In this document: one piece after another, positions 3,639 to 33,358 of the stretch
How positions within the stretch are numbered: the stretch's first letter is position 1
How the letters are laid out: each line of letters starts with the position of its first letter
NCBI GenBank assembly: GCA_964625335.1
Contig: CAZVBE010000002.1
Span: forward strand, 36,689-100,688
Reading direction: 5' to 3'
DNA length: 64,000 nt
Origin: an uncultured Clostridium sp.
Lineage (GTDB): Bacteria; Bacillota; Clostridia; Ch29
Program-made: the position numbers and the translations under genes
The notes under the pieces: generated by a model
Seen by the model: only the letters and a program-made list of their open reading frames with translations
Database searches by the model: none
Told to the model about the DNA's origin: nothing

Positions 3639-4685
3639 TTGACAGGCAAAACAAAGAAAATTCTGATTATAATTACAGCATCCTTCCTGGTATTACTGCT
3701 TGGAATGTTTTTTGTTATGAACAGGAATATTATATGGGCTATACTAAAGCCCTTTATCATAGGCGTAACCATTGCCTATTTATTCAACCCTCTTGTTGAA
3801 GCAGCGACAGAAAGGGGCAGCCATAGAATAACAGCTGTTATTCTTGTATATACCGTTGTTTTAGGTTTTGTTGCCGGGACGTCGTACTTTTTTTTGCCCC
3901 AGGTGTACAGGGAAACTTTGAAACTGATGGATATACTGCCGGATTATGCTTTTAAAGCCAAGGATTATCTGGATAATATATATATAAGATTTAGCAAAGC
4001 TCTTACCCCTGAGCTTAAGGAGGCAATCAGGGACAACATTGACGATATCCAGGAGTTAATTATAAATCAGATTAAGAATCTGTCTGAAAAATTCCTGGCT
4101 TTCTTTGGAGGGCTGGTAAATTGGATAATTGCCCTGGTGATTTCATTTTATCTGTTGAAGGATAAAAACTATTTCTTGAATTTGGCCGAGTATATAATAC
4201 CTGTCAGTATGAGACAGGATGCTGCCAGGATAAGCGATGAGATAAACAGCGTGCTTATGAGATTTATACGCGGCCAGCTGCTGGTTTCAATTATAGTAGG
4301 GATTTCGGCCACAATCGGCTTTTTACTTATTGACTTGAACTTTGCAGTATTAATGGGCATAATCACAGGCCTGGGAAACGTTATTCCCTATTTCGGGCCG
4401 GTCTTCGGCGGCATCCCGGTAGCGGTGGTAGGACTTATGGAAAGCCCGACCAAGGCATTATGGGCAGTCATTATAGTGGTAATTGTACAGCAGCTTGAAA
4501 GTGGTATAATAACGCCCAAAATCCTGGGCGACAGCGTTGGGATTCACCCCGTTTTCATAATACTGTCGCTGCTTATCGCGGGTCAGTTTTTCGGATTAAT
4601 AGGACTGTTCTTTGCGGTTCCTGCGGCGGCAATATTAAAGATTTTTGCAGTGTATATTTTCAACAAAATCGTGAATACAACATAA
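3639..4685 (+). CDS. AI-2E family transporter (YtvI/PerM-like permease)
   Basis: 348 aa polytopic membrane protein with the AI-2E signature region GNVIPYFGPVFGGIPVAVVGL. TTG start after GGGAGGA. Confidence 0.75.
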   Translation: MTGKTKKILIIITASFLVLLLGMFFVMNRNIIWAILKPFIIGVTIAYLFNPLVEAATERGSHRITAVILVYTVVLGFVAGTSYFFLPQVYRETLKLMDILPDYAFKAKDYLDNIYIRFSKALTPELKEAIRDNIDDIQELIINQIKNLSEKFLAFFGGLVNWIIALVISFYLLKDKNYFLNLAEYIIPVSMRQDAARISDEINSVLMRFIRGQLLVSIIVGISATIGFLLIDLNFAVLMGIITGLGNVIPYFGPVFGGIPVAVVGLMESPTKALWAVIIVVIVQQLESGIITPKILGDSVGIHPVFIILSLLIAGQFFGLIGLFFAVPAAAILKIFAVYIFNKIVNTT

Positions 4686-4985: not shown

Positions 4986-5016
4986 TATCAACGGTGTGTC
5001 CCCCTACCCGAAAGAC

Positions 5017-5035
5017 TATCAATCGGGGACATTCC
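5017..5035 (+). repeat. dispersed short repeat unit TATCAATCGGGGACATTCC (copy A)
   Basis: Near-identical copies at 62009-62035 and 63313-63341. Each is preceded by CCCG-NRAG and flanked by GGTGTGTCCCC/GGGGACATTCC-type inverted units (4987-5003, 5055-5071). Confidence 0.7.
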
Positions 5036-5097
5036 GTAATGAGGAATACCCGAATATCAACGGTGTGTCCCCATACCACTATAGAGGAGGTTATAGA

Positions 5098-7737
5098 ATG
5101 GAACAATTGGGTTTAAATGAAATACGGGAAAGATATCTGAAATTCTTTGAGAGCAAAGAGCATTTGAGACTGCCTAGTTTTCCCCTTGTTCCACAAAACG
5201 ATAAAAGCCTGCTGCTTATTAACAGCGGCATGGCGCCTTTGAAACCGTATTTTACAGGGTCCCAGACACCACCTGCCAACAGGGTGACTACCTGCCAGAA
5301 GTGTATCAGAACCCCGGATATTGAGCGTGTCGGCAAGACAGCGCGGCACGGCACCTTCTTCGAAATGCTGGGTAATTTCTCATTTGGGGATTATTTTAAA
5401 GATGAAGCCATTGCGTGGGCATGGGAGTTTGTTACCGAAGACCTAAAGCTTCCAGAGGACCGGTTATGGATTACCATATATCAGGATGATGACGAGGCCT
5501 TTGATATATGGAATAAATCGATAGGCATACCGGCCGACAGGATAGTGCGAATGGGTAAGGAGGATAATTTCTGGGAAATAGGACTGGGTCCCTGCGGGCC
5601 GTGTTCCGAAATATATTTTGACAGGGGTGAAAAATACGGCTGCGGCAGCGAGGATTGCAAGGTAGGCTGCGACTGTGACAGGTATGTGGAATTCTGGAAC
5701 CTGGTGTTTACACAGTTTGACAGAGATTCGGAAGGCGTATATCACAAATTGGAAAGCCCCAATATTGATACAGGAATGGGCCTGGAAAGAATGGCAGCAA
5801 TAATGCAGGGTGTGGACACCATGTTTGAAGTGGACACCATTGGACATGTCCTTAACTACATTGCCCATATAACCGGTAACAGGTATGGAGAGGATCCGAA
5901 ATCCGATGTATCAATAAGGGTCATTACCGACCATATAAGAGGGGTTACCAACATGATCAGCGACGGAGTACTCCCTTCCAATGAAGGCAGAGGTTATGTA
6001 CTGAGAAGGCTGCTGCGAAGGGCTGCCCGTCACGGAAAGCTGCTTGGTATTGAAGGAAGCTTTTTGTATGACATATCAAGCAAGGTTATAGAGGTGTCCG
6101 GCAAGGCCTATCCGGTGCTGGAGGAAAAAAGGGAATATATACAAAACATTATCAGGCTGGAAGAAGAGAGATTTCAGGAGACTCTGGACCAGGGGTTGTA
6201 TATACTGCAGGAATACATTCTGGAAATACAAAAGGTAAGCGGCAGTATACTGCCCGGGGACAAAGCCTTTAAGCTGTATGATACCTTCGGGTTTCCACTG
6301 GATTTGACCAGAGATATTCTTGAAGATGAGGGCATGACTGTGGATAAGGACGGGTTTGACAAGGCAATGACGGTTCAACGAGACAGAGCAAGAGCTGCCC
6401 GGGCAGAGGCCCAAACTGTGGGATGGAGTGATGAGACATCTTCACAACTGGAGGGGATTGCCGCCACAAGGTTTGAAGGCTATGAGAAATGCAGTAATAA
6501 GACAAGGATTGCGGCGGTATTAAAGGAGAACACCCTGGTGAAAGAGGCAGTTGAAGGAGACCGGGTAGCAGTGGTACTGGATTCTACCCCCTTCTATGCA
6601 GAAAGTGGAGGTCAGGCAGGGGATACGGGAGAAATCAAAGGCGAGACCTTCGTTATAGAGATTAAGGACTGCAAAGCCGTACGGGGAGACATATTTTTGC
6701 ATATAGGCATGGTGAAGACCGGCTCGATAATGCCCGGCATGGAAGCCACTGCAAGCATTGACGTCAGTCAGAGGACCGATGCTGCGCGGAATCACACTGC
6801 CACACACTTGCTGCACAGGGCATTAAGAACTGTGCTGGGTGACCATGTCCAGCAGGCGGGTTCTCTGGTGCAGCCGGACCGACTGCGGTTTGATTTTACA
6901 CACATTTCCCCAATGACAGCCAGGCAGCTGGATGAGGTGGAAAGCATTGTTAACCGGAGGATACTGGACGACCTTGCGGTTGAAACGGTCCAAACCGATA
7001 TGGACAGGGCAAGGGAAATGGGAGCAACGGCTCTTTTCGGTGAAAAGTATGGGGATACTGTCAGGGTGGTAAAAGCCGGCGACTTTTCCATAGAGCTATG
7101 TGGAGGCACGCATGTTAACAGGACTTCAGCCCTTGGAATGTTCGTGCTTGTCGGGGAAAGCGGTATTGCCGCAGGGGTGAGAAGAATAGAGGCTTTGACC
7201 GGAAAAAGAGCTTTTGAGCATATCAAAAACAGGGAAAGGATTTTGATACAGACTGCCCATATACTGAAAACCTCCCCCGATAACTTTGAAGCCAGGATAC
7301 ATGGACTTTTGGAGGAGCTCAAAACAAAGGACAGGGAAATAGGTGCTTTAAGACAAAAACTTGCTGCGCATGAAACCGACAGACTTATTGATGATGCAAG
7401 AGAAATAAAGGGCATAAAGGTGGTTGCAGCCCGGGTGGATAATCTCGATATGAATGCATTGAGGAATTTGGGGGACAGCCTGAGAAACAGGCTGAAATCC
7501 GGAGTGGTGGTATTGGCTTCCAACAAGGATGACAAGATAAATATGGTGGCTATGGCTACCGGGGATGCAGTTTCGGCAGGTGCCCACTCAGGCAGAATTA
7601 TTAAAGAGGTGGCGGCAATTGCCGGGGGCGGCGGTGGAGGAAAACCCGACATAGCCCAGGCCGGAGCAAAGAGGCCTGAAAAAATTCCGGATGCCCTGGA
7701 TAAAGTCTATGCAATCTTACAATCACAGTTGAAATAA
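5098..7737 (+). CDS. alaS: alanine--tRNA ligase
   Basis: 880 aa from ATG 5098 (RBS AGGAGG). Class II aaRS motifs are present, as are the editing-domain HxxxH and the C-terminal DHHA1 GGGGGGK. The ORF-track start at 4996 reads through the leader. Confidence 0.93.
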   Translation: MEQLGLNEIRERYLKFFESKEHLRLPSFPLVPQNDKSLLLINSGMAPLKPYFTGSQTPPANRVTTCQKCIRTPDIERVGKTARHGTFFEMLGNFSFGDYFKDEAIAWAWEFVTEDLKLPEDRLWITIYQDDDEAFDIWNKSIGIPADRIVRMGKEDNFWEIGLGPCGPCSEIYFDRGEKYGCGSEDCKVGCDCDRYVEFWNLVFTQFDRDSEGVYHKLESPNIDTGMGLERMAAIMQGVDTMFEVDTIGHVLNYIAHITGNRYGEDPKSDVSIRVITDHIRGVTNMISDGVLPSNEGRGYVLRRLLRRAARHGKLLGIEGSFLYDISSKVIEVSGKAYPVLEEKREYIQNIIRLEEERFQETLDQGLYILQEYILEIQKVSGSILPGDKAFKLYDTFGFPLDLTRDILEDEGMTVDKDGFDKAMTVQRDRARAARAEAQTVGWSDETSSQLEGIAATRFEGYEKCSNKTRIAAVLKENTLVKEAVEGDRVAVVLDSTPFYAESGGQAGDTGEIKGETFVIEIKDCKAVRGDIFLHIGMVKTGSIMPGMEATASIDVSQRTDAARNHTATHLLHRALRTVLGDHVQQAGSLVQPDRLRFDFTHISPMTARQLDEVESIVNRRILDDLAVETVQTDMDRAREMGATALFGEKYGDTVRVVKAGDFSIELCGGTHVNRTSALGMFVLVGESGIAAGVRRIEALTGKRAFEHIKNRERILIQTAHILKTSPDNFEARIHGLLEELKTKDREIGALRQKLAAHETDRLIDDAREIKGIKVVAARVDNLDMNALRNLGDSLRNRLKSGVVVLASNKDDKINMVAMATGDAVSAGAHSGRIIKEVAAIAGGGGGGKPDIAQAGAKRPEKIPDALDKVYAILQSQLK

Positions 7738-21328: not shown

Positions 21329-22087
21329 ATGCCAAGAGGAGCAAGAAAGAAAAGCGAAAGCGGGATATATCATATTTTGTTGCGAGGGCAAAACAGGCAG
21401 ATAATTTTCGAAGATGATGAGGATAAAGAAAGGTTTATACAAACATTAAAAGACTGTAAAAACAAAAGCGGATGGAAAATATACGGATATTGCCTAATGG
21501 GAAACCATATTCATTTGTTGCTGCACGAATTTGACGAAGAAACAGGAATAATAATGCGGCGGATTGGCGCGAGTTATGTATACTGGTATAACTGGAAGTA
21601 TAAACGCTGTGGACACTTGTTTCAGGACCGTTATAAAAGTGAAGCGGTTGAAACAGAAAAGTATTTTTTAACAGTCCTTCGATACATACATCAAAACCCG
21701 GTAAAGGCTGGTCACGCAAAGAAGGCCCTGGATTATAAATGGAGCAGCTATAATGAATATATGAATAATAACGGGATAACGGATACCGGCTTTGCACTGG
21801 GCATTTTCAATGAGGACAGGGAAAAGGCGATTCAGAATTTCATAGATTTTCATAATGAACAAAAAGAAGCTAATTGCCTTGAAATGGAAGAGCGCTTCAG
21901 GCTGACAGATGAAGAAGCAATGGCCATCATAAAGGAGGAGTATTGCGTATCCAGTAGTTTGCAGCTAAAGGATTTTGAAAAAAAGAAAAGAGACATATGT
22001 ATAAAAGAGCTAAAAGATAAAGGTCTGTCGACAAGGCAAATAGAGCGGCTGACGGGGATAAGCAGATACATTATTCTGAAAATGTAA
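21329..22087 (+). CDS. Y1/HUH transposase, REP-associated tyrosine transposase-like (IS200/IS605 TnpA superfamily) with C-terminal HTH
   Basis: HuH motif GNHIHLLLHE and a downstream catalytic-Tyr region (DRYKSEAVE). The C-terminal LSTRQIERLTGISRYIILKM looks like an HTH. The gene is flanked by inverted REPs. Confidence 0.75.
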   Translation: MPRGARKKSESGIYHILLRGQNRQIIFEDDEDKERFIQTLKDCKNKSGWKIYGYCLMGNHIHLLLHEFDEETGIIMRRIGASYVYWYNWKYKRCGHLFQDRYKSEAVETEKYFLTVLRYIHQNPVKAGHAKKALDYKWSSYNEYMNNNGITDTGFALGIFNEDREKAIQNFIDFHNEQKEANCLEMEERFRLTDEEAMAIIKEEYCVSSSLQLKDFEKKKRDICIKELKDKGLSTRQIERLTGISRYIILKM

Positions 22088-24245: not shown

Positions 24246-24968
24246 ATGATAGAAGTAAAAAAACTGAACAAATGGTATGGAAAGCTTCATGTTCTTAAGG
24301 ATGTAGATATGTCTGTAAAGGAAAAGGAAGTTGTAGTTATAATTGGAGCCAGTGGCTCAGGTAAAAGTACTTTGCTAAGGTGTATTAACTTTTTGGAAAA
24401 AGCGCAGAAAGGGCAAATATTTATTGAGGGAAAAGAGGTTAAGCCTAAGGGAAAGGATTTGCATCTTATAAGGCAGGAAGTGGGTATGGTCTTTCAGCAT
24501 TTTAATCTTTTCCCTCATATGACGGTTTTGCAAAATGTTATTGAGGGGCCAACTCAGGTAAAAAAAATGCCTAAGGATGATGCAGAAGAGTTAGGCTACG
24601 AGCTTTTAGAAAAAGTAGGCCTGGAGGATAAGGCTTACTCCTATCCGAGCATGATATCCGGTGGTCAAAAGCAAAGGGTTGCCATAGCAAGGGCACTGGC
24701 CATGCAACCAAAGGTATTGCTTTTTGACGAGCCTACATCTGCACTCGATCCTGAACTGGTTGGAGAGGTATTAGTGGTAATGGAGGGTTTGGCAAAAGAA
24801 GGGATGACAATGGTTGTTGTAACTCATGAGATGTGGTTTGCTGAAGAAGCAGCCGACAGGGTGATTTATATGGATGAAGGCAGGATAATTGAAGAAGGAA
24901 CGCCTGAAAAAATATTTAGCCAACCAGAAAATGAACGAACGAGGGCTTTTTTGAAGCAAATACTATAA
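24246..24968 (+). CDS. polar amino-acid ABC transporter ATP-binding protein
   Basis: Walker [10 protein letters not shown], signature [14 protein letters not shown], Walker [12 protein letters not shown]. Confidence 0.9.
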
Positions 24969-24991
24969 AAAGCAGAACATCCATGACCTTA

Positions 24992-25021
24992 TTGACGTAA
25001 TACCCAGGTATGAGTTATCAT
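24992..25021 (+). promoter_or_regulatory. putative promoter of the riboswitch-GGDEF transcript
   Basis: TTGACG (24992-24997), 18-nt spacer, TATCAT (25016-25021). Confidence 0.45.
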
Positions 25022-25032
25022 AGTGGTTAGTT

Positions 25033-25116
25033 GCATGAAAAAGGCAAACCTGACGAAAGTCAGGGACGCAAAGCTGCGAGTCTACGGTAATCTTACTACG
25101 ACAGTCGGGCTGCCAT
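25033..25116 (+). promoter_or_regulatory. c-di-GMP-I (GEMM) riboswitch aptamer
   Basis: GGCAAACC-TGAC-GAAA-GTCA-GGGACGCAAAGC..CGGGCTGCC matches the GEMM-I core. That core is GGCAAACC, a P2 stem with GAAA tetraloop, GGGACGCAAAGC, and a 3' G-rich closing strand. Compare the V. cholerae Vc2 segment GGGCAAACCAUUCGAAAGAGUGGGACGCAAAGCC. Confidence 0.75.
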
Positions 25117-25142
25117 AAGACATAATACATTAGTTTATGGCT

Positions 25143-25171
25143 GTCGTAGTTTAAGTGGCTACGACTTTTTT
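25143..25171 (+). terminator. riboswitch expression-platform intrinsic terminator
   Basis: GTCGTAG-tttaagtgg-CTACGAC then TTTTTT, ending one base before the ORF ATG. Upstream CTACGACAGTCGGGCTGCCATAAG can pair alternatively with CTTATGGCTGTCGTAG as an antiterminator. Confidence 0.7.
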
Positions 25172-25207
25172 ATGTTATTTCCGGACTATATGGAAGGGGA
25201 AAAAATC

Positions 25208-26323
25208 TTGCTACAGTTGGCTAGAACTCTTGTTTTTATGGAAATGCTGTTTATAAATTTGATAACCACGCACCGCTGTTCGCGGACAAGATATTCACAA
25301 AAGAGTATTACAGCAGGATTAATTTTTTATACGGCTTTGGTGATGTTGACTTCTTTTTTAATCAAGCGTAATCTTAGACTGGAGTTTCTTAACGGCAGTA
25401 TAATCATCTTACTGGGATTTACTTATTTTTTTCCATTAAAGTACTTGTATGATGAATCTTCAGGTAAAATTTTGGCTATCATGTTTTTTTCCTGGATTCA
25501 CACAATGGCTGTGACCTCTATATCTATACAGATTTCTATGCTGTTTGAATTGGACAATTATTTTTATCTGGCTCTTATATTACAAACCATAATCTATTTA
25601 GTCAGCACCCGGGCTGTAATACGTTTTGTAAAGAATAAGTTTATACCTATTTTGAAGAACATTCCGAAGGAAATGAACAAACACCTTATCGTACTAAGCC
25701 TGATGGAATTCACGTCTGTGACGATAGTCTATCTATTCTTTAACGAAAACGCAAATCCTTACTGGACAATAATAATAGTGGCACTGATAGCGTCAATAGC
25801 AGCGATAAACTACCATTTAATCTATGTAGTAGTTAAAAACTATAAAAGTATAAGCTTTTTAAAACTGCTTGCTTATTCGGATACTCTAACCGGTATCAAA
25901 AACAGACTGGCACTTTTTCTTGATTGCGATAAACTGATTTCCCAAAATAAGCCCTTCACTTATATATATATGGACCTGGATGATTTCAAAAAAGTAAATG
26001 ATACATACGGTCACTCTGTCGGGGATGATTATCTGAAGCAGTTTACCAAAGCAGCAATAGAAACGATAGGGGATAAAGGAAGCATCTACAGAATGTCAGG
26101 CGATGAATTTGTCTGTATATATAACGAAGACAAAATAGATTTATTACTGGCAACATTTGATGAAAAAGTTATGAACCTGTTTGAAATGAGCGTACCGTTC
26201 TTAGGAGTTAGTATTGGCTATGCAAAGTTTCCTGAAGATGCCGATTCGTTGGATAAACTTGTGAATAAAGCAGATAAAATCATGTATAAAGTCAAAAAAA
26301 CCAATAAACTCAAACCGATTTAG
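25208..26323 (+). CDS. membrane-anchored GGDEF-domain protein with SGDEF variant motif
   Basis: About 6 N-terminal TM helices, then a GGDEF domain whose signature reads RMSGDEFV (SGDEF). The start is uncertain: ATG 25172 has no RBS, TTG 25208 follows GGAAGGGG. Confidence 0.7.
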   Translation: MLQLARTLVFMEMLFINLITTHRCSRTRYSQKSITAGLIFYTALVMLTSFLIKRNLRLEFLNGSIIILLGFTYFFPLKYLYDESSGKILAIMFFSWIHTMAVTSISIQISMLFELDNYFYLALILQTIIYLVSTRAVIRFVKNKFIPILKNIPKEMNKHLIVLSLMEFTSVTIVYLFFNENANPYWTIIIVALIASIAAINYHLIYVVVKNYKSISFLKLLAYSDTLTGIKNRLALFLDCDKLISQNKPFTYIYMDLDDFKKVNDTYGHSVGDDYLKQFTKAAIETIGDKGSIYRMSGDEFVCIYNEDKIDLLLATFDEKVMNLFEMSVPFLGVSIGYAKFPEDADSLDKLVNKADKIMYKVKKTNKLKPI

Positions 26324-26436
26324 GCTATAATGAATATCTGCCACAAGGGAGATTACTGCCTTAATTTATCGGAGGCAGCAATGATATAATAATACTTAAA
26401 GATGGCTAATTCTTGTTTATGAAGGAGTGCCTGGCT

Positions 26437-28917
26437 TTGTTAACACAGCAGCATATTCTAAAACGTGAGCATATAATTACAGAGCTTGACAATGTTTTTG
26501 ACTATCCGATGACGGTGGCAGTAGCGGCTATGGGCTATGGGAAAACCACAGCGGCAAAAGCCTTCTTAAACGAGACCGGTGCAAAATATGCGTGGGTATC
26601 TGTCGAAGGTGACGAATCTTCACCCCAGTATATATGGAATTCCCTGGCGGGACAACTGGCAAAAACCATACCGGAGCTTGGTAATCAGTTTCGTGCTTTG
26701 GGCTTTCCCGCCGATGCACCGCAGAGGGATAAGATTTTAAAGATGATAGAAGATTATACTTATTTGACCAATACAGTACTGGTAATTGACGACTATCATT
26801 TTTCTCATTCTCCTGAGTTTGACAGGTTGCTTGAAAGAATTGTCCGATCAGGTATAGATGGTTTCCATATTCTATTGCTTTCAAGGACAATTCCCGAAAT
26901 GAATATTGATGAATTAATGCTTAAAGGTTATTGTTATATTATAAAGAATGGCTTGTTTGAGCTTAACAGGGATGAAATTAAGGAGTATTTTAAGCTATAC
27001 GGCTGCAATCTTTCTGAAGATACGGCAAGACGGATTCATGAGATATCGGAGGGATGGATATCGGCTGTATATCTGATTATGCAAAGATATATCGAAATAG
27101 GCAGGCTGGAGCCGGGGAGAAGCATTGAAAAACTGATTGAAACGGCCGTTATATCACGGTATACAGCCAGGGAAGTAATGTTATTAAAATCACTGTGCAT
27201 ACTTGACAGTTTCACTCCACAGCAAGCGGTGTATGTGACAGGCGATATGGAAGCAAAAAAAATTATTCAAAAACTGAGCAGTGGGAATTCCTTTATTCGT
27301 TATGATGCACAAGGTGATACATACAGGATTCATAATATTTTCAGCAATTATTTAAGGCAACTGATTGAGGAACAGCCATCTGATGTGCAGCTTGATAAAC
27401 TATATAAGCGTTCCGGTCAGTGGTGCATTCTTAATAATGATATTATTTCAGGGCTTAAGTATCTGTTGAAAGCAAAGGAATATGACCTTATACTGACCCA
27501 ATTTGAGAAGAGCAGTATAAACTTAGTTATAGACAACAATCCCGGATTTATATTGGAATTGTTTGAGAATATTCCTGTTGAGATAAAATACCGTCATCCC
27601 ATTGCCTATCTTGCCTATACAGGTTTCTACGTTACCAATGTTGACAAGGAAGCCGGTGCGCGCCTTTTGTCAAGAATCGAGCGGTATTACCAGAATGATG
27701 ATGGTATATCCCCTGAGATGAAAAAACGCATTTCAGGAGAGATAGAGCTAATAAAGGCCTACATTGGTTTTAATGATGCTGCCCTGATGCGGGAAAAGCT
27801 TGCCAAGGCCCACCGGATGCTGGAGGGACGTTCCTTTATCGCCAATAAGGATAAGATTATTACCTTTGGCTCTCCCCATTCATTATACCTTTATTACCGT
27901 GAAAAGGGTAAATTGATGTGGACCAGGGATTGCGTCGAGGAGATGTTTCCTTTTTACATGGAGATGGCAGATGGTTGTGGCAAAGGGTTTGATTGTCTGC
28001 TAAATGCTGAATACTACCTGGAAACCGGAAATGTCGCCAAGGCTGAACTTTACGCCTACAAAGCCATGTACAAAGCTAAAAGCATGGAACAGGTATCTGT
28101 CATTATATGTGCACAGTTGACACTTGCAAGGGTTTGTACTGCAAGGGGCAAGTTTAATGAAGCACTTGAAATCATGGATGATTTAAGCGAAGAGGTGGAT
28201 GCGTGCAACAGCCCTATTCTTAGCAGTGCATTTGATTTATGTACCGGTTATATGGGCGGGATAACCGGAAATGATACTTATTTTGCCAAATGGCTCAGGT
28301 CCGGGGATGTGGAGCAGAGTGAGGTTTTATATCAAGGTATGGGTTTTAATCATATTATCCATGGGAAATACCTTCTGCTAGAAAAAGAATATGTAAAACT
28401 AGAGGTTCTCTGTGAAGAAATGAGGCAGATTTTTTCTTCGTTCAACAACTTGTTAGGACATCTTCATATCCAAATATTGGATGCAGCTGCCAAATATAAG
28501 CTTTATGGCATGGAGAGTGCAAAATCCGCGATATTTCCTGCCCTTGGCATAGGCAAGACAGATGACATTGTACTTCCCTTTGCGGAATATGGAAAGTATA
28601 TTCTGGAAGTATTGAAAGAGCTGCAAAAGGATGACGGCAAAGACGAATATCTCAACAGGCTTGTGGCCTGTGCATCTCAGTATTGTGACAACCTGAAAAA
28701 TATGGAAGATATGCAATCGACAGCGTCTATGCTGACAAATCGTGAAAAGGAAATACTTGAACTAGTCGTAGAGGGCAAAACCAATAGGGAAATAGCATCA
28801 GGGCTTTTCATAGCCGAGGTTACTGTCAGAAAAAATATTACCTCTATCTACAGGAAACTGGATGTAACCGGGCGGGCATCTGCCGTTAAAAAAGCCATTG
28901 AACAGAAAATTATCTGA
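26437..28917 (+). CDS. MalT/LuxR-type STAND ATPase transcriptional regulator
   Basis: N-terminal P-loop AAMGYGKTT, a long helical/TPR-like middle, and a C-terminal LuxR HTH (EIASGLFIAEVTVRKNITSIYRKL). The start is uncertain (ATG 26419 or TTG 26437 after GAAGGAG). Confidence 0.75.
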   Translation: MLTQQHILKREHIITELDNVFDYPMTVAVAAMGYGKTTAAKAFLNETGAKYAWVSVEGDESSPQYIWNSLAGQLAKTIPELGNQFRALGFPADAPQRDKILKMIEDYTYLTNTVLVIDDYHFSHSPEFDRLLERIVRSGIDGFHILLLSRTIPEMNIDELMLKGYCYIIKNGLFELNRDEIKEYFKLYGCNLSEDTARRIHEISEGWISAVYLIMQRYIEIGRLEPGRSIEKLIETAVISRYTAREVMLLKSLCILDSFTPQQAVYVTGDMEAKKIIQKLSSGNSFIRYDAQGDTYRIHNIFSNYLRQLIEEQPSDVQLDKLYKRSGQWCILNNDIISGLKYLLKAKEYDLILTQFEKSSINLVIDNNPGFILELFENIPVEIKYRHPIAYLAYTGFYVTNVDKEAGARLLSRIERYYQNDDGISPEMKKRISGEIELIKAYIGFNDAALMREKLAKAHRMLEGRSFIANKDKIITFGSPHSLYLYYREKGKLMWTRDCVEEMFPFYMEMADGCGKGFDCLLNAEYYLETGNVAKAELYAYKAMYKAKSMEQVSVIICAQLTLARVCTARGKFNEALEIMDDLSEEVDACNSPILSSAFDLCTGYMGGITGNDTYFAKWLRSGDVEQSEVLYQGMGFNHIIHGKYLLLEKEYVKLEVLCEEMRQIFSSFNNLLGHLHIQILDAAAKYKLYGMESAKSAIFPALGIGKTDDIVLPFAEYGKYILEVLKELQKDDGKDEYLNRLVACASQYCDNLKNMEDMQSTASMLTNREKEILELVVEGKTNREIASGLFIAEVTVRKNITSIYRKLDVTGRASAVKKAIEQKII

Positions 28918-29305: not shown

Positions 29306-32300
29306 ATGATGAAAAAAAAGCTATTATGTATTTTGGGATTTTTATTATTCTTTGTTCTTATTAAACCTGTTTTTGCTTCCGGATCAGGTATCATAACCTT
29401 TAAATATGATGATTTTGCAAATCCCGGTTTAATTAAACTGGATGGTACGGATGGTTATGCCAGAATAATACACGATTCTTCTACAGGGAAAGATGTGATT
29501 AGGCTGACTCCTGCAGATAGTATTACAGCTGTCAGAGGTACTGCGTATTATAAAAATTATGTTTCTCTTGCAAACGATCGCTCTTTCAGTACTTATTTTA
29601 CTTTTAAAATAATTCCGATTGGCGAGGGTGCAGATGGTATTGTCTTTATATTAAATAACGATACCAACGAATTAGGTGGCGGTGGTGGCGGCATGGGGTA
29701 TGCCAATATGGATAATAGCATAGGTATTGAATTTGATACCTACGATAATAGCTACAATTGGGGGGGAGGTACGCCTTCCAATACGTATGGGGATGACGGA
29801 CTTGGTAATGGGCGGTATGGATTTAGTCATATGGCTGTCAATGTTAATGGTGATATCGATAAGCCGGTTGCTACTGCTTCTAATACGCAAATAGCCGATT
29901 ATACCGGCGAACCATGTAATTTCAAGAATGGACAATTACATCATGTGTGGATTGATTACGATGGCCCAAATTCTACTATAGAAGTGCGAATAAGCAAGGA
30001 TATAAACAGGCCTGATGAGGCTCTTATTACTTATGATGATCTTGACCTTAATAATATTTTGAAGCAAGACGAAGTTTATGTGGGATTTTCTGCATCAACC
30101 GGCGGAAGCAAGGAATCCCATGATATTTACCAGTGGTATTTTAATAATGATTTTACCCCTATAGACACAGCAGATAAAACTTATGTCTCTGCGCCATCAG
30201 TTAGTCTAACTGCTACTCCCGTTACTGATATAGAAACCACTCTTACTGCTGTATTGACAAACGCTGACGGTTCTTTGTCGCCCAATGAACAAGTGGCGTT
30301 TAGCACAAATTTAGGAACGCTTAGTGATACATCAGCTACTACTAATGAAGATGGCGAAGCAAGTGTTACCTTGATAAATGATACTAATGGCGGGGCTTAT
30401 GTCAAAGCAGCAGCAGCATACGGGGCTTATGATGAAGTTATAATGCCGCCCAATGTGCCGACACTTGAAGTCAGTACCACCACTTCCATTACCCTTTCCC
30501 CGATAGTTGATGCCGAATATAAAATGGATGATGGAGAGTGGCAGGACAGTAATCACTTTTCTGATCTTTCTATGAATACCGAGTACACATTTTATGCCAG
30601 AATGAAGGAAACCCCAACAAGTGCAGCGTCAATCGAAACCACCGGTGTAACTTTTGCGACATTGCCATATACAGTTACCTATAAAGGAAATGGTAATACA
30701 GGTGGCACAGCACCCAATGATTCCAGTCAATATGAATATGGAGCAACTGTAACTGTATTAGGACAGGGTGATCTGGAAAGGGCTGGTTATACATTTTCTG
30801 GTTGGGCTACCAATGCTGACGGAACCGGAACCACATATAAAGAAGATGATACTTTTTCTATGGGATCAGGAAATATTAACCTCTGGGCTAAATGGATAAT
30901 CAATGGGTACACTGTAACCTTCCTGGATCATGATGGAACACAATTAAAAACAGAAACAGTAGCACATGGAAACAGTGCAACGGCACCGGATGCTCCGACA
31001 AGAGAAGGTTATACCTTTACAGGCTGGGACAAAGCGTATGATAACGTAATATCTGATTTGGAGGTAACAGTCCAATACAATATTAATGAATACAAAGTAA
31101 GTTTCGCAAGTACTGGTGGAAGTGCAGTTGATTTCATCAAAGCGGATTATGGAACAACTATAACGGAACCAACAGTGCCATCAAAAGAAGGTTATACCTT
31201 TGGAGGTTGGTATAAGGAAGCGGGATTAATAAACCGGTGGAATTTTGAGAGCGATACAATTCCCGCAGAGGATATATCTCTATATGCGAAATGGGATACA
31301 GTTGACTATAGTATTACCTACAATCTTGATGGTGGGGCAAATAACGGAATCAATCCGTCAAGCTATACAATAGAAACTGATACAATAACCCTGTGTACAC
31401 CGACCAGGACCGGATACACATTTCTAGGGTGGTATGATGCACAGACAGATGGCAATAAGATATCAGATATAGTGAAAGGCAGCACCGGCGACAAGACTTT
31501 GTGGGCACGATGGATATCCAATGAAAGCCTCTGGATATCTGTTAACCCTGACATAGTTGCCGGCAGCATTAACTTTAGCCAGGAATTTGAACTAGCCCTC
31601 AATAATGATACAGTGGCAGGAACAGTTTATGCATCTGACATAACCCTTGGGGGTGTATTTGCAGGACTGGATATATCAGCGGTTGATAATACAAGCACAA
31701 CAGTTACTGCAGAGGTTTATGGTAACCTGAATAGCGAAGGGACAGGTACAATCACATTAAACGGCAGCAGGCTTAAAATAAGTACGAACGCATTAGCATC
31801 AGAAGTAACAGTTGGCCTTAATAAGGTAACCTATGACAGTAACGAAAGTACAGGGGGAAGCGTACCAACCGACAATAATAAATATGCACAAGAAGCAAGT
31901 GTTACAGTGCTTGGTAACATAGGCGGTTTAGAAAAAAGAGGATATAGTTTTGATGGATGGAATACAAAAAGTGATGGAAGTGGATATTCCTATAAAGCTG
32001 ATGATGTATTTAGTATGGGCGCAAACAATGTAAACTTGTACGCAATATGGAAACCGGCTATAGTAACGCGTCATAGGCCGTCAAGCAGAGGAAGTAGTAA
32101 TACGCCTTCGGCAGAAATACTCATCAATGGAAAAACAGAGGCTGCGGCTACTTCCAGTACAAAAACAGTTGATGATAAAACTGTTACGACTGTAGCATTA
32201 GACGACAGGATAGTAGAAGAAAAGCTTCAAAATGAAGGCAATAACGCTATGGTGACCATACCTGTCAAAAATACTTCAGATATAGTGATTGGACAGCTAA

Positions 32301-33358
32301 ATGCGCAGACCGTTAAAAATATGGAGGAGAAGGAGGGCGCACTGGAAATAAAAACCTGGAACGTGACTTATACGATTCCGGCATCGCAGATAAATATTGA
32401 TAAGGTTTCAGAACAGATTGGCAGAGAGGTTGCATTAGATGACATTTTAGTCAATATAGAAATATCCGTTCCGCCCGACGAAACAGTAGAAATTATTGAG
32501 GATACGTCAAACGCCGGCGGCTTTATGCTTGTGGCGGAGCCGGTGGGGTTTGAAATCAACTGTAGGTATGGAGACAGGGCTGTGGAGGTGTCGAGATTTA
32601 ACAGCTATGTGGAGCGCACCATTGCCATCCCTGAAGGGGCTGATACTTCAAAGATTACCACCGCCGTAGTGTTGAATCCTGACGGAAGCTTTTCCCATGT
32701 TCCGACAGCTATTGTTGAAATCGAAGGTAAATACTATGCAAAAATCAACAGCTTGACTAACAGCATCTACTCTGTCATCTATAATCCCAAGATATTCAAG
32801 GATGTTGAAAATCACTGGGCAAAAGATGCAGTGAACGATATGGGCTCAAGATTGGTTATCAGTGGAGTTGGTAAAGACAGGTTTGAGCCGGACAGGAATA
32901 TCACAAGAGCAGAGTTTACAGTAGTTGTAGTCAGGGCACTTGGTCTTATGCAGTATGAAACCGGAGAGGATGTCTTCAACGATGTTCCGAATAATGCATG
33001 GTATCACGATGCAGTTTCAGCAGCCTATGAATATGGCATAATAACCGGTTACGGAGACGGAAGGTTCGACCCTAACGACAAGATAACCCGCGAACAGGCT
33101 TTTACCATGATATCAAGAGCAATGAACATTACCAGACAAAAAGTTGAATTTCCATCCGGCGAGGTCGAAAAGCTTCTTGCAGGCTTCAGGGATTCTGACA
33201 AATCGGCAGCTTATGCGAAAAACAGTATTGCTTCATGCATTAAATCCGGAATTGTTTCCGGCAGGAATGGCAATCTGATAGCCCCAACAGATAACATCAC
33301 CAGGGCGGAAACTGCGGTGATGGTCAGAAGGCTGCTGCAGAAATCGAATTTGATATAA
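29306..33358 (+). CDS. S-layer homology surface protein with N-terminal legume-lectin-like domain, Ig-like region, Flg_new (Listeria-Bacteroides) repeats and three C-terminal SLH domains
   Basis: Signal peptide, then a concanavalin-like lectin region. At least five YTF[ST]GW..DGTG..Y..DD repeats follow. Three SLH repeats are present (FKDVENHWAKDAVNDM.., FNDVPNNAWYHDAVSAAYEYGIITGY.., FRDSDKSAAYAKNSIA..). Confidence 0.85.
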   Translation: MMKKKLLCILGFLLFFVLIKPVFASGSGIITFKYDDFANPGLIKLDGTDGYARIIHDSSTGKDVIRLTPADSITAVRGTAYYKNYVSLANDRSFSTYFTFKIIPIGEGADGIVFILNNDTNELGGGGGGMGYANMDNSIGIEFDTYDNSYNWGGGTPSNTYGDDGLGNGRYGFSHMAVNVNGDIDKPVATASNTQIADYTGEPCNFKNGQLHHVWIDYDGPNSTIEVRISKDINRPDEALITYDDLDLNNILKQDEVYVGFSASTGGSKESHDIYQWYFNNDFTPIDTADKTYVSAPSVSLTATPVTDIETTLTAVLTNADGSLSPNEQVAFSTNLGTLSDTSATTNEDGEASVTLINDTNGGAYVKAAAAYGAYDEVIMPPNVPTLEVSTTTSITLSPIVDAEYKMDDGEWQDSNHFSDLSMNTEYTFYARMKETPTSAASIETTGVTFATLPYTVTYKGNGNTGGTAPNDSSQYEYGATVTVLGQGDLERAGYTFSGWATNADGTGTTYKEDDTFSMGSGNINLWAKWIINGYTVTFLDHDGTQLKTETVAHGNSATAPDAPTREGYTFTGWDKAYDNVISDLEVTVQYNINEYKVSFASTGGSAVDFIKADYGTTITEPTVPSKEGYTFGGWYKEAGLINRWNFESDTIPAEDISLYAKWDTVDYSITYNLDGGANNGINPSSYTIETDTITLCTPTRTGYTFLGWYDAQTDGNKISDIVKGSTGDKTLWARWISNESLWISVNPDIVAGSINFSQEFELALNNDTVAGTVYASDITLGGVFAGLDISAVDNTSTTVTAEVYGNLNSEGTGTITLNGSRLKISTNALASEVTVGLNKVTYDSNESTGGSVPTDNNKYAQEASVTVLGNIGGLEKRGYSFDGWNTKSDGSGYSYKADDVFSMGANNVNLYAIWKPAIVTRHRPSSRGSSNTPSAEILINGKTEAAATSSTKTVDDKTVTTVALDDRIVEEKLQNEGNNAMVTIPVKNTSDIVIGQLNAQTVKNMEEKEGALEIKTWNVTYTIPASQINIDKVSEQIGREVALDDILVNIEISVPPDETVEIIEDTSNAGGFMLVAEPVGFEINCRYGDRAVEVSRFNSYVERTIAIPEGADTSKITTAVVLNPDGSFSHVPTAIVEIEGKYYAKINSLTNSIYSVIYNPKIFKDVENHWAKDAVNDMGSRLVISGVGKDRFEPDRNITRAEFTVVVVRALGLMQYETGEDVFNDVPNNAWYHDAVSAAYEYGIITGYGDGRFDPNDKITREQAFTMISRAMNITRQKVEFPSGEVEKLLAGFRDSDKSAAYAKNSIASCIKSGIVSGRNGNLIAPTDNITRAETAVMVRRLLQKSNLI

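Follow-up and report, generated by a model that had tools for sequence, protein, structure and literature searches.

A class-I c-di-GMP aptamer and a predicted transcription-termination switch upstream of a membrane SGDEF protein gene in an uncultured Clostridium sp.

Overview of the locus

The window, i.e. the whole stretch of DNA analysed here, comprises 64,000 nucleotides (nt) from an uncultured Clostridium sp. (GenBank assembly GCA_964625335.1, contig CAZVBE010000002.1, positions 36,689 to 100,688 of the forward strand). The region of interest consists of a promoter-like sequence, an aptamer of the class-I cyclic di-guanosine monophosphate type (c-di-GMP-I or GEMM-I), a spacer hairpin, an intrinsic terminator, and a gene for a membrane protein whose GGDEF domain carries the motif SGDEF (Table 1). 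Taken as a whole, it quite probably forms the 5' leader of a gene for a membrane diguanylate cyclase with an SGDEF motif, in which a canonical c-di-GMP riboswitch of class I controls transcription termination and is OFF with ligand. The Rfam scan (cmscan, whole window, gathering thresholds) gives two matches only, this aptamer and a T-box leader. Among the ortholog loci with enough upstream sequence, four of 17 carry the riboswitch, namely the window itself and the loci designated L081, L093 and L094.

Table 1. Features of the riboswitch leader and the genes that follow it (positions in the window).
Feature	Position	Strand	Description and basis
Sigma-70-like promoter	24992-25021	+	TTGACG 24992-24997, 18-nt spacer, TATCAT 25016-25021; pattern scan, 10/12 matches
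c-di-GMP-I (GEMM-I) aptamer	25034-25118	+	Rfam match, full length
P1	25036-25037 with 25114-25115	+	Rfam alignment, pairs checked
Core motif GGCAAACC	25043-25050	+	read from sequence
G-C clamp	25044-25045 with 25068-25069	+	Rfam alignment, pairs checked
P2 stem, CCUGAC/GUCAGG	25049-25064	+	GAAA loop 25055-25058; read from sequence
Core motif GGGACGCAAAGC	25063-25074	+	read from sequence
P3	25072-25082 with 25100-25111	+	Rfam alignment, pairs checked
Apical P3, receptor position of type-1 aptamers	25083-25099	+	comparison with the RF01051 consensus, L094 and L093
Antiterminator 5' strand ACUACGACAGUCG	25095-25107	+	P3 3' strand and part of the apical loop
G-rich 3' strand UCGGGCUGCC	25105-25114	+	read from sequence
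Spacer hairpin, GCCAUA/UAUGGC stem	25112-25141	+	present in minimum free energy folds
Antiterminator 3' strand UGGCUGUCGUAGU	25138-25150	+	partly the same nucleotides as the 5' arm of the terminator stem
Intrinsic terminator	25143-25171	+	9-bp stem 25143-25165, 5-nt loop, T6 25166-25171; pattern scan
Shine-Dalgarno-like GGAAGGGG and start codon	25192-25210	+	GGAAGGGG 25192-25199, TTG 25208-25210; sequence, homologue N-termini
Regulated gene, 371-residue membrane protein	25208-26323	+	about 7 transmembrane helices, stalk helix, SGDEF GGDEF domain, no RxxD
MalT/LuxR-type STAND regulator	26413-28917	+	Pfam GerE, TPR_MalT, AAA_22; NCBIfam MalT 1e-46

Architecture of the aptamer

The Rfam match spans the complete model (positions 1-80 of 80) with a score of 75.5 bits and an E-value of 4.1e-16. 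The GEMM-I core pointed out in an earlier note, which was made from the letters of the window, is present in all its parts: both core motifs, the P2 stem capped by the GAAA tetraloop, and the G-rich strand at the 3' side. The P1, P2 and P3 pairings are compatible with the GEMM consensus, as every pair taken from the Rfam alignment is a standard pair in the window. P2 and P3 were also recovered by RNAalifold from five related aptamers, with compensatory double changes in 8 of the 21 consensus pairs. The whole leader, with the folds ending at position 25180, is more stably folded than shuffled sequences (z = -4.07, none of 200 shuffles being as good). A 55-residue open reading frame (ORF) on the opposite strand (24963-25130) overlaps the aptamer and is almost certainly spurious.

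In the structure line of the Rfam alignment, G25043 is unpaired and precedes the G-C clamp, and C25113, also unpaired, precedes the 3' strand of P1; A25070 is the first A of the GACGC-AAA core. We take these three residues to be the equivalents of the ligand-contacting G20, A47 and C92 of Vc2, a numbering that reportedly goes back to the Vc2 structures of Smith 2009 and Kulshina 2009. Together they make up the standard c-di-GMP triad, and the binding pocket is thus predicted to be canonical. The Vc2 aptamer of Vibrio cholerae shares with the window the GGCAAACC motif, the GAAA-capped P2, the GACGCAAAGC motif, and unpaired bases (G, A and C) at the ligand-contact positions; it differs by possessing a tetraloop-receptor docking site, the counterpart of which is changed in the window, and by having no clear intrinsic terminator after the aptamer. 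In the riboswitch for cyclic GMP-AMP (c-GAMP, GEMM-Ib), reportedly described by Kellenberger 2015 and Nelson 2015, an A is said to replace G20. This assignment was rejected, the equivalent position of the window being G25043.

Class assignment within the GEMM clan

The top Rfam family for the aptamer is RF03167 (c-di-GMP-I-GGC, clan CL00126; gathering score 59 bits), and not RF01051 (gathering score 35 bits), with which a match had been expected in the earlier note. The class-I identity itself stands, with the orthologous leaders scoring 68-82 bits against RF01051. One further CL00126 match of lower score, also above its own gathering score, was masked by clan competition and is very probably RF01051. 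If the element were a true member of the GGC variant, which was reportedly first described by Weinberg 2017, its changed pocket might recognise another signalling molecule, and the gene would not be controlled by c-di-GMP. The passing of the RF03167 gathering score by the best-scoring match speaks for such a membership, which we nevertheless regard as very improbable and have rejected on account of the pocket base. The defining position of the variant was deduced by comparing the consensus lines of the two families, which differ at one core position only (GACGCGAAgCc in RF03167, GACGCAAAgCc in RF01051). The window reads GACGCAAAGC, in common with all three orthologous riboswitches, and the base after GACGC is therefore the canonical A25070 and not G. 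The closest relatives of the leader, which have the same gene downstream, are called RF01051 at 82 bits. Moreover, two same-clan matches were suppressed for the three canonical riboswitches of L081, L093 and L094, so the RF03167 and RF01051 models cross-react.

The better score of RF03167 is probably due to the apical part of P3, where the tetraloop receptor of the window is mutated. The receptor site reads CUACGG...CUACG, as against CUAAGG...CUAUG in the RF01051 consensus and in L094, and thus both of its halves are changed; the receptor of L094 is canonical and that of L093 is half-changed. The GAAA loop of P2, the partner for GNRA docking, is present in the window while the receptor motif in P3 is altered. 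A GNRA receptor is modeled in the RF01051 consensus and is absent from that of RF03167, and because of this absence the latter applies no penalty to the P3 apex of the window. The likeness to the GGC variant thus lies in the best covariance model, the short receptor-less P3 apex and the modeled P1 pairs, and the difference in the A, instead of G, after GACGC, which leaves the pocket canonical. Since the variant-defining base is A25070, we conclude that the element is, as far as its sequence tells, a c-di-GMP-I aptamer of the canonical kind whose receptor is altered, and no GGC variant. Automated Rfam labelling would place it under the orphan GGC variant despite the canonical pocket, which illustrates that the best match within a clan can mislead.

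The loss of the receptor can also be taken as a sign that the riboswitch is decaying or retuned, binds c-di-GMP weakly, and serves for the most part as an attenuator that is always active, or switches at very high c-di-GMP only. This explanation is unlikely in our opinion, even if it accounts for the change of both receptor halves with respect to L094 and for the change at C25099, through which a U-G pair of the antiterminator becomes C-G and the antiterminator is strengthened as well; the patchy presence of the riboswitch among the orthologs, too, shows an element that is easily gained or lost. All the ligand-contacting and core nucleotides are intact, P1, P2 and P3 all pair, and the complementarity of terminator and antiterminator is fully kept. 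In addition, the GEMM clan includes receptor-less aptamers as accepted members; the consensus of RF03167 itself has no receptor.

Expression platform and predicted switching

The promoter implies a transcription start at ~25028-25031, ~6 nt upstream of the aptamer, and its hexamers and spacer are conserved in L093. An inverted repeat is located between the -35 and -10 hexamers (24998-25015 in the window, 2247-2264 in L093); it is perfect in L093 (ACCCA...TGGGT), whereas the window has ACCCA...TGAGT. A protein regulator might use it as an operator, in addition to the control by the riboswitch.

Downstream of the aptamer, the spacer hairpin overlaps the 3' strand of P1 and C25113. It is followed by the terminator, the hairpin with T6 that the earlier note had placed ahead of the ORF: the ATG at 25172 lies directly 3' of the T6 run. 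In the pattern scan, two terminator-like sites were found as compared to 0.3 expected from shuffles. The free energy of the terminator hairpin alone is -12.0 kcal/mol. The terminator is conserved in L093 and L094, whereas L081 has a terminator of different sequence at the same place. The mutually exclusive antiterminator, also proposed in that note, is borne out by 13 base pairs (11 Watson-Crick and 2 G-U) between 25095-25107 and 25138-25150, and by the minimum free energy (MFE) folds of nested transcripts. With the 3' end at 25141 the MFE fold contains P2, P3 and the spacer hairpin; with 3' ends at 25151-25160 the antiterminator takes the place of P3; from 25166 onward P2, P3 and the spacer hairpin are found together with the terminator. 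The segment GGCUGUCGUAG of the antiterminator 3' strand is conserved in L093 and L094, and pairing of the aptamer 3' strand with the 5' half of the terminator is observed in both of these leaders as well as in the differently built leader of L081. When the two states are enforced they are nearly isoenergetic (-40.0 kcal/mol for the antiterminator, -41.8 kcal/mol for the terminator), so a ligand-stabilised aptamer would tip the choice to termination.

From these elements the following mechanism is predicted. Transcription would begin at the TTGACG-18-TATCAT promoter, a few nucleotides ahead of the aptamer. At high c-di-GMP, the aptamer (P1, P2 and P3 with G25043, A25070 and C25113) would bind the ligand and retain the 3' strand of P3, leaving 25143-25149 free for pairing with 25159-25165; the terminator would form, and RNA polymerase would halt at T6, ahead of the ribosome-binding site and of the start codon TTG 25208. 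At low c-di-GMP, the segment 25138-25150, once made, would invade P3 and form the 13-bp antiterminator with 25095-25107, the terminator would be blocked, and the gene would be transcribed, possibly together with that of the MalT-like regulator.

The switch is thus predicted to be OFF with ligand, as is Cd1 of Clostridioides difficile. Class-I switches of both the ON and OFF type exist (PMC9262584), and an ON or a translational switch, by which c-di-GMP would raise the expression of the SGDEF protein in a positive feedback, has to be weighed; the competition of the hairpin 25112-25141 with the 3' strand of P1 makes more complex rearrangements conceivable. We rejected this arrangement as highly improbable. 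The aptamer and the terminator share no nucleotides and can coexist, while the only strong alternative to the terminator consumes the P3 3' strand of the aptamer, so that the ligand favours termination. With regard to translation, the Shine-Dalgarno (SD) sequence at 25192-25199 lies 21 nt past T6 and is not part of any structured element predicted in the folds, which end at 25180. The same arrangement of aptamer and terminator is found in three other leaders (L081, L093 and L094).

The OFF switch is best compared with Cd1, the leader of the flagellar operon, in which the aptamer is present together with HP1 and the terminator, all three in competition with the antiterminator, and for which the OFF direction is experimentally established (PMC9262584). 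Cd1 and the window have in common a class-I aptamer, a spacer hairpin (HP1 in Cd1, to which the hairpin 25112-25141 is comparable), an intrinsic terminator, an antiterminator that unfolds the aptamer, and a host from the Clostridia (PMC9262584). They differ in the genes that follow, flagellar in Cd1 and a cyclase gene in the window, in the canonical tetraloop receptor that the aptamer of the window does not have, and in that the switching is only predicted for the window. The leader would be a standard c-di-GMP-I transcriptional riboswitch, the predicted mechanism of which matches that of Cd1.

The regulated protein

The start codon of the gene is TTG 25208, 8 nt downstream of GGAAGGGG, as had been supposed in the earlier note. 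The N-termini of 40 homologues align to it with the pattern M-x-x-L-A-R-x-x-x-F-L-E-M-L-F, and the three orthologous loci agree: at the aligned position L093 and L094 have an SD sequence and TTG, and L081 has an SD sequence and ATG, the arrangement SD-TTG/ATG-Glu-x-Leu-Ala-Arg being common. The mechanical ORF start is ATG 25172, and the Joint Genome Institute (JGI) gene calls, made on metagenome contig Ga0334901_1000152 of 111,779 bp (3300033162), start at 25172 and 25190; the element thus gives the correct start for a gene that pipelines begin too early.

The ORF does encode the membrane GGDEF protein with SGDEF signature that the earlier note had described. In the AlphaFold model (predicted local distance difference test, pLDDT, 91.5), about seven membrane helices lead into the stalk helix. 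No Pfam match was found for residues 1-220 (25208-25870), and a search of the PDB gave no structural neighbour for the membrane domain of about seven helices. The C-terminal part is a GGDEF domain by both sequence and fold (PF00990, TIGR00254). About 67 full-length homologues, all from Bacillota/Clostridia-type sources, share the conserved membrane domain. In the motif S309 G310 D311 E312 F313 the serine is nearly fixed, with SGDEF in 40 of the 41 family members and AGDEF in the remaining one. Residues D268, K273, N276, D277, H281, R307, GDEF 310-313 and K375 are invariant in the 41 members, and D285 is kept in at least 90% of them. The metal/GTP-binding residues align with those of the Thermotoga maritima diguanylate cyclase, and D268, N276, D285, R307 and K375 presumably correspond to the metal/GTP-binding set of PleD (equivalents of D327, N335, D344, R366 and K442).

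The RxxD allosteric inhibition site (I-site), located five residues before the motif, is common but not obligatory in diguanylate cyclases. In the case of this family it is found in none of the 41 members within the 14 residues before the motif, where GDKG aligns with the RRSD of 4URS. In respect to the whole architecture, a weak likeness is seen to staphylococcal GdpS (NF047872; 50 bits, residues 97-365), which also has a multi-transmembrane N-terminus and a C-terminal GGDEF domain, but the family cut-off of 400 bits is far above this score and the protein is no ortholog. GdpS reportedly does not synthesise c-di-GMP.

Cyclases with an SGDEF motif can be active, as ECA3270 is, and MbaA in vivo (PMC3974145, PMC8079147). 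ECA3270 (Pectobacterium), MbaA and VCA0965 (Vibrio cholerae) resemble the protein of the window in the non-glycine first residue of GG(D/E)EF with cyclase activity retained or inferred (PMC3974145, PMC8079147), and differ in being proteobacterial and in having unrelated N-terminal domains; the protein of the window belongs to a Bacillota family in which SGDEF is fixed throughout and RxxD is lacking as well. The earlier note had left the choice between a feedback circuit and the control of a c-di-GMP receptor or degenerate cyclase. Because SGDEF is family-wide, the remaining catalytic residues are all in place and active cyclases with SGDEF are known, the motif is, judging by these alignments, no sign of the degeneracy that the note had considered, and an active cyclase appears more likely than a degenerate receptor; for the same reasons the feedback circuit is favoured over the control of a degenerate receptor. 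As the switch is predicted to be OFF and its product is most likely an active cyclase, the circuit would be a negative product feedback at the RNA level, in which c-di-GMP most likely shuts off the production of its own synthase.

Occurrence among orthologs and weight of the interpretation

The aptamers of the three other riboswitch-bearing loci are matched by RF01051 at 2283-2367 of L093 (82.1 bits), 1413-1498 of L094 (82.5 bits) and 2904-2987 of L081 (68.5 bits). The core of L093 and L094 is nearly identical to that of the window, the main difference being the P3 apex. At Rfam gathering thresholds no riboswitch was found in L082, L086-L088, L090, L091, L095, L097-L099, L102, L103 and L104; L085 has too little upstream sequence and stands outside the count. 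The metagenome scan with an N-terminal alignment of eight sequences gave eight loci, L085 included, and no riboswitch was seen in any of them. The contig-collection search with the full-length protein alignment, the patterns of which were drawn from the GGDEF domain, returned only generic GGDEF proteins of 24-35% identity. The association between riboswitch and gene is lineage-restricted and patchy. In L095, which has no riboswitch ahead of its SGDEF gene, a c-di-GMP-I riboswitch (4080-4169, 72.5 bits) is present ~500 nt downstream of that gene, preceding a solute-binding-protein gene and then a GGDEF-HD gene.

Several of the observations weigh against a c-di-GMP-responsive OFF switch with product feedback. 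The riboswitch is present in only four of 17 loci, so that this control is no fixed property of the gene family, and most family members are without both riboswitch and I-site. Both halves of the tetraloop receptor carry mutations that could lower the affinity for the ligand, and the RF01051 score of the window's own aptamer is hidden by the clan competition among overlapping matches. At full length, RNAfold gives the terminator state a slight advantage in stability even when no ligand is considered, and an OFF switch would therefore require kinetic control during transcription. In respect to the enzyme, VCA0965 lost its activity upon change of the first motif residue to serine (PMC3974145); activity of SGDEF enzymes is not universal, and the cyclase activity of the present family is a prediction.

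That GEMM elements can precede genes for cyclases and phosphodiesterases has been known from the time when the class was defined (PMC3971182, citing Sudarsan 2008). What goes beyond this routine arrangement, if modestly, is the misleading GGC best match, the receptor loss coupled to a stronger antiterminator, and the combination of an RNA-level product sensor with an I-site-less cyclase family. The main value of the analysis is the correct annotation, by which an uncharacterised family of SGDEF membrane proteins from Bacillota, lacking the I-site, is linked to c-di-GMP homeostasis. A more far-reaching scenario, which we offer as tentative and doubtful, is that a cyclase family that lost its allosteric site for product inhibition (RxxD is missing from all 41 members) acquired RNA-level product feedback by a c-di-GMP OFF riboswitch in a small lineage of Clostridia; that the window traded the receptor for a stronger antiterminator (C25099), raising the c-di-GMP needed for shut-off; and that the 7-helix membrane domain, with neither Pfam match nor PDB neighbour, is a new sensor input to c-di-GMP signalling. 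The riboswitch as a compensation for the missing I-site is weakened as an explanation, the site being absent family-wide and the riboswitch present in so few of the loci.

Genomic surroundings

The gap between the SGDEF gene and the gene of the MalT/LuxR-type regulator (26324-26412) has no terminator-like site, as scanned over 26250-26480, and the two genes may form an operon and be co-regulated. The regulator is not kept beside the riboswitch-carrying orthologs. In general, the neighbouring genes are not conserved among the ortholog loci, and they differ in L081, L093 and L094; a MalT-like gene is located near the SGDEF ortholog of L098. The gene after the regulator (29306-33358) encodes a surface protein of 1350 residues with an L-type lectin domain, Listeria-Bacteroides repeats and SLH domains, for which a role as c-di-GMP-related output is plausible.

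Transposase genes of the IS200/Y1 type are found a few kb from the SGDEF gene in the window (21329-22087) and in L081 (4955-5716). A spore photoproduct lyase and SLH proteins are encoded on the same DNA and, together with a T-box ahead of alaS, point to a spore-forming organism of Clostridia-like type. The T-box leader (RF00230, 4751-4961, plus strand, 124.3 bits) is located directly upstream of the alanyl-tRNA synthetase ORF (4996-7737; tRNA-synt_2c, E 1e-204), and the T-box with alaS is an ordinary arrangement of Firmicutes.

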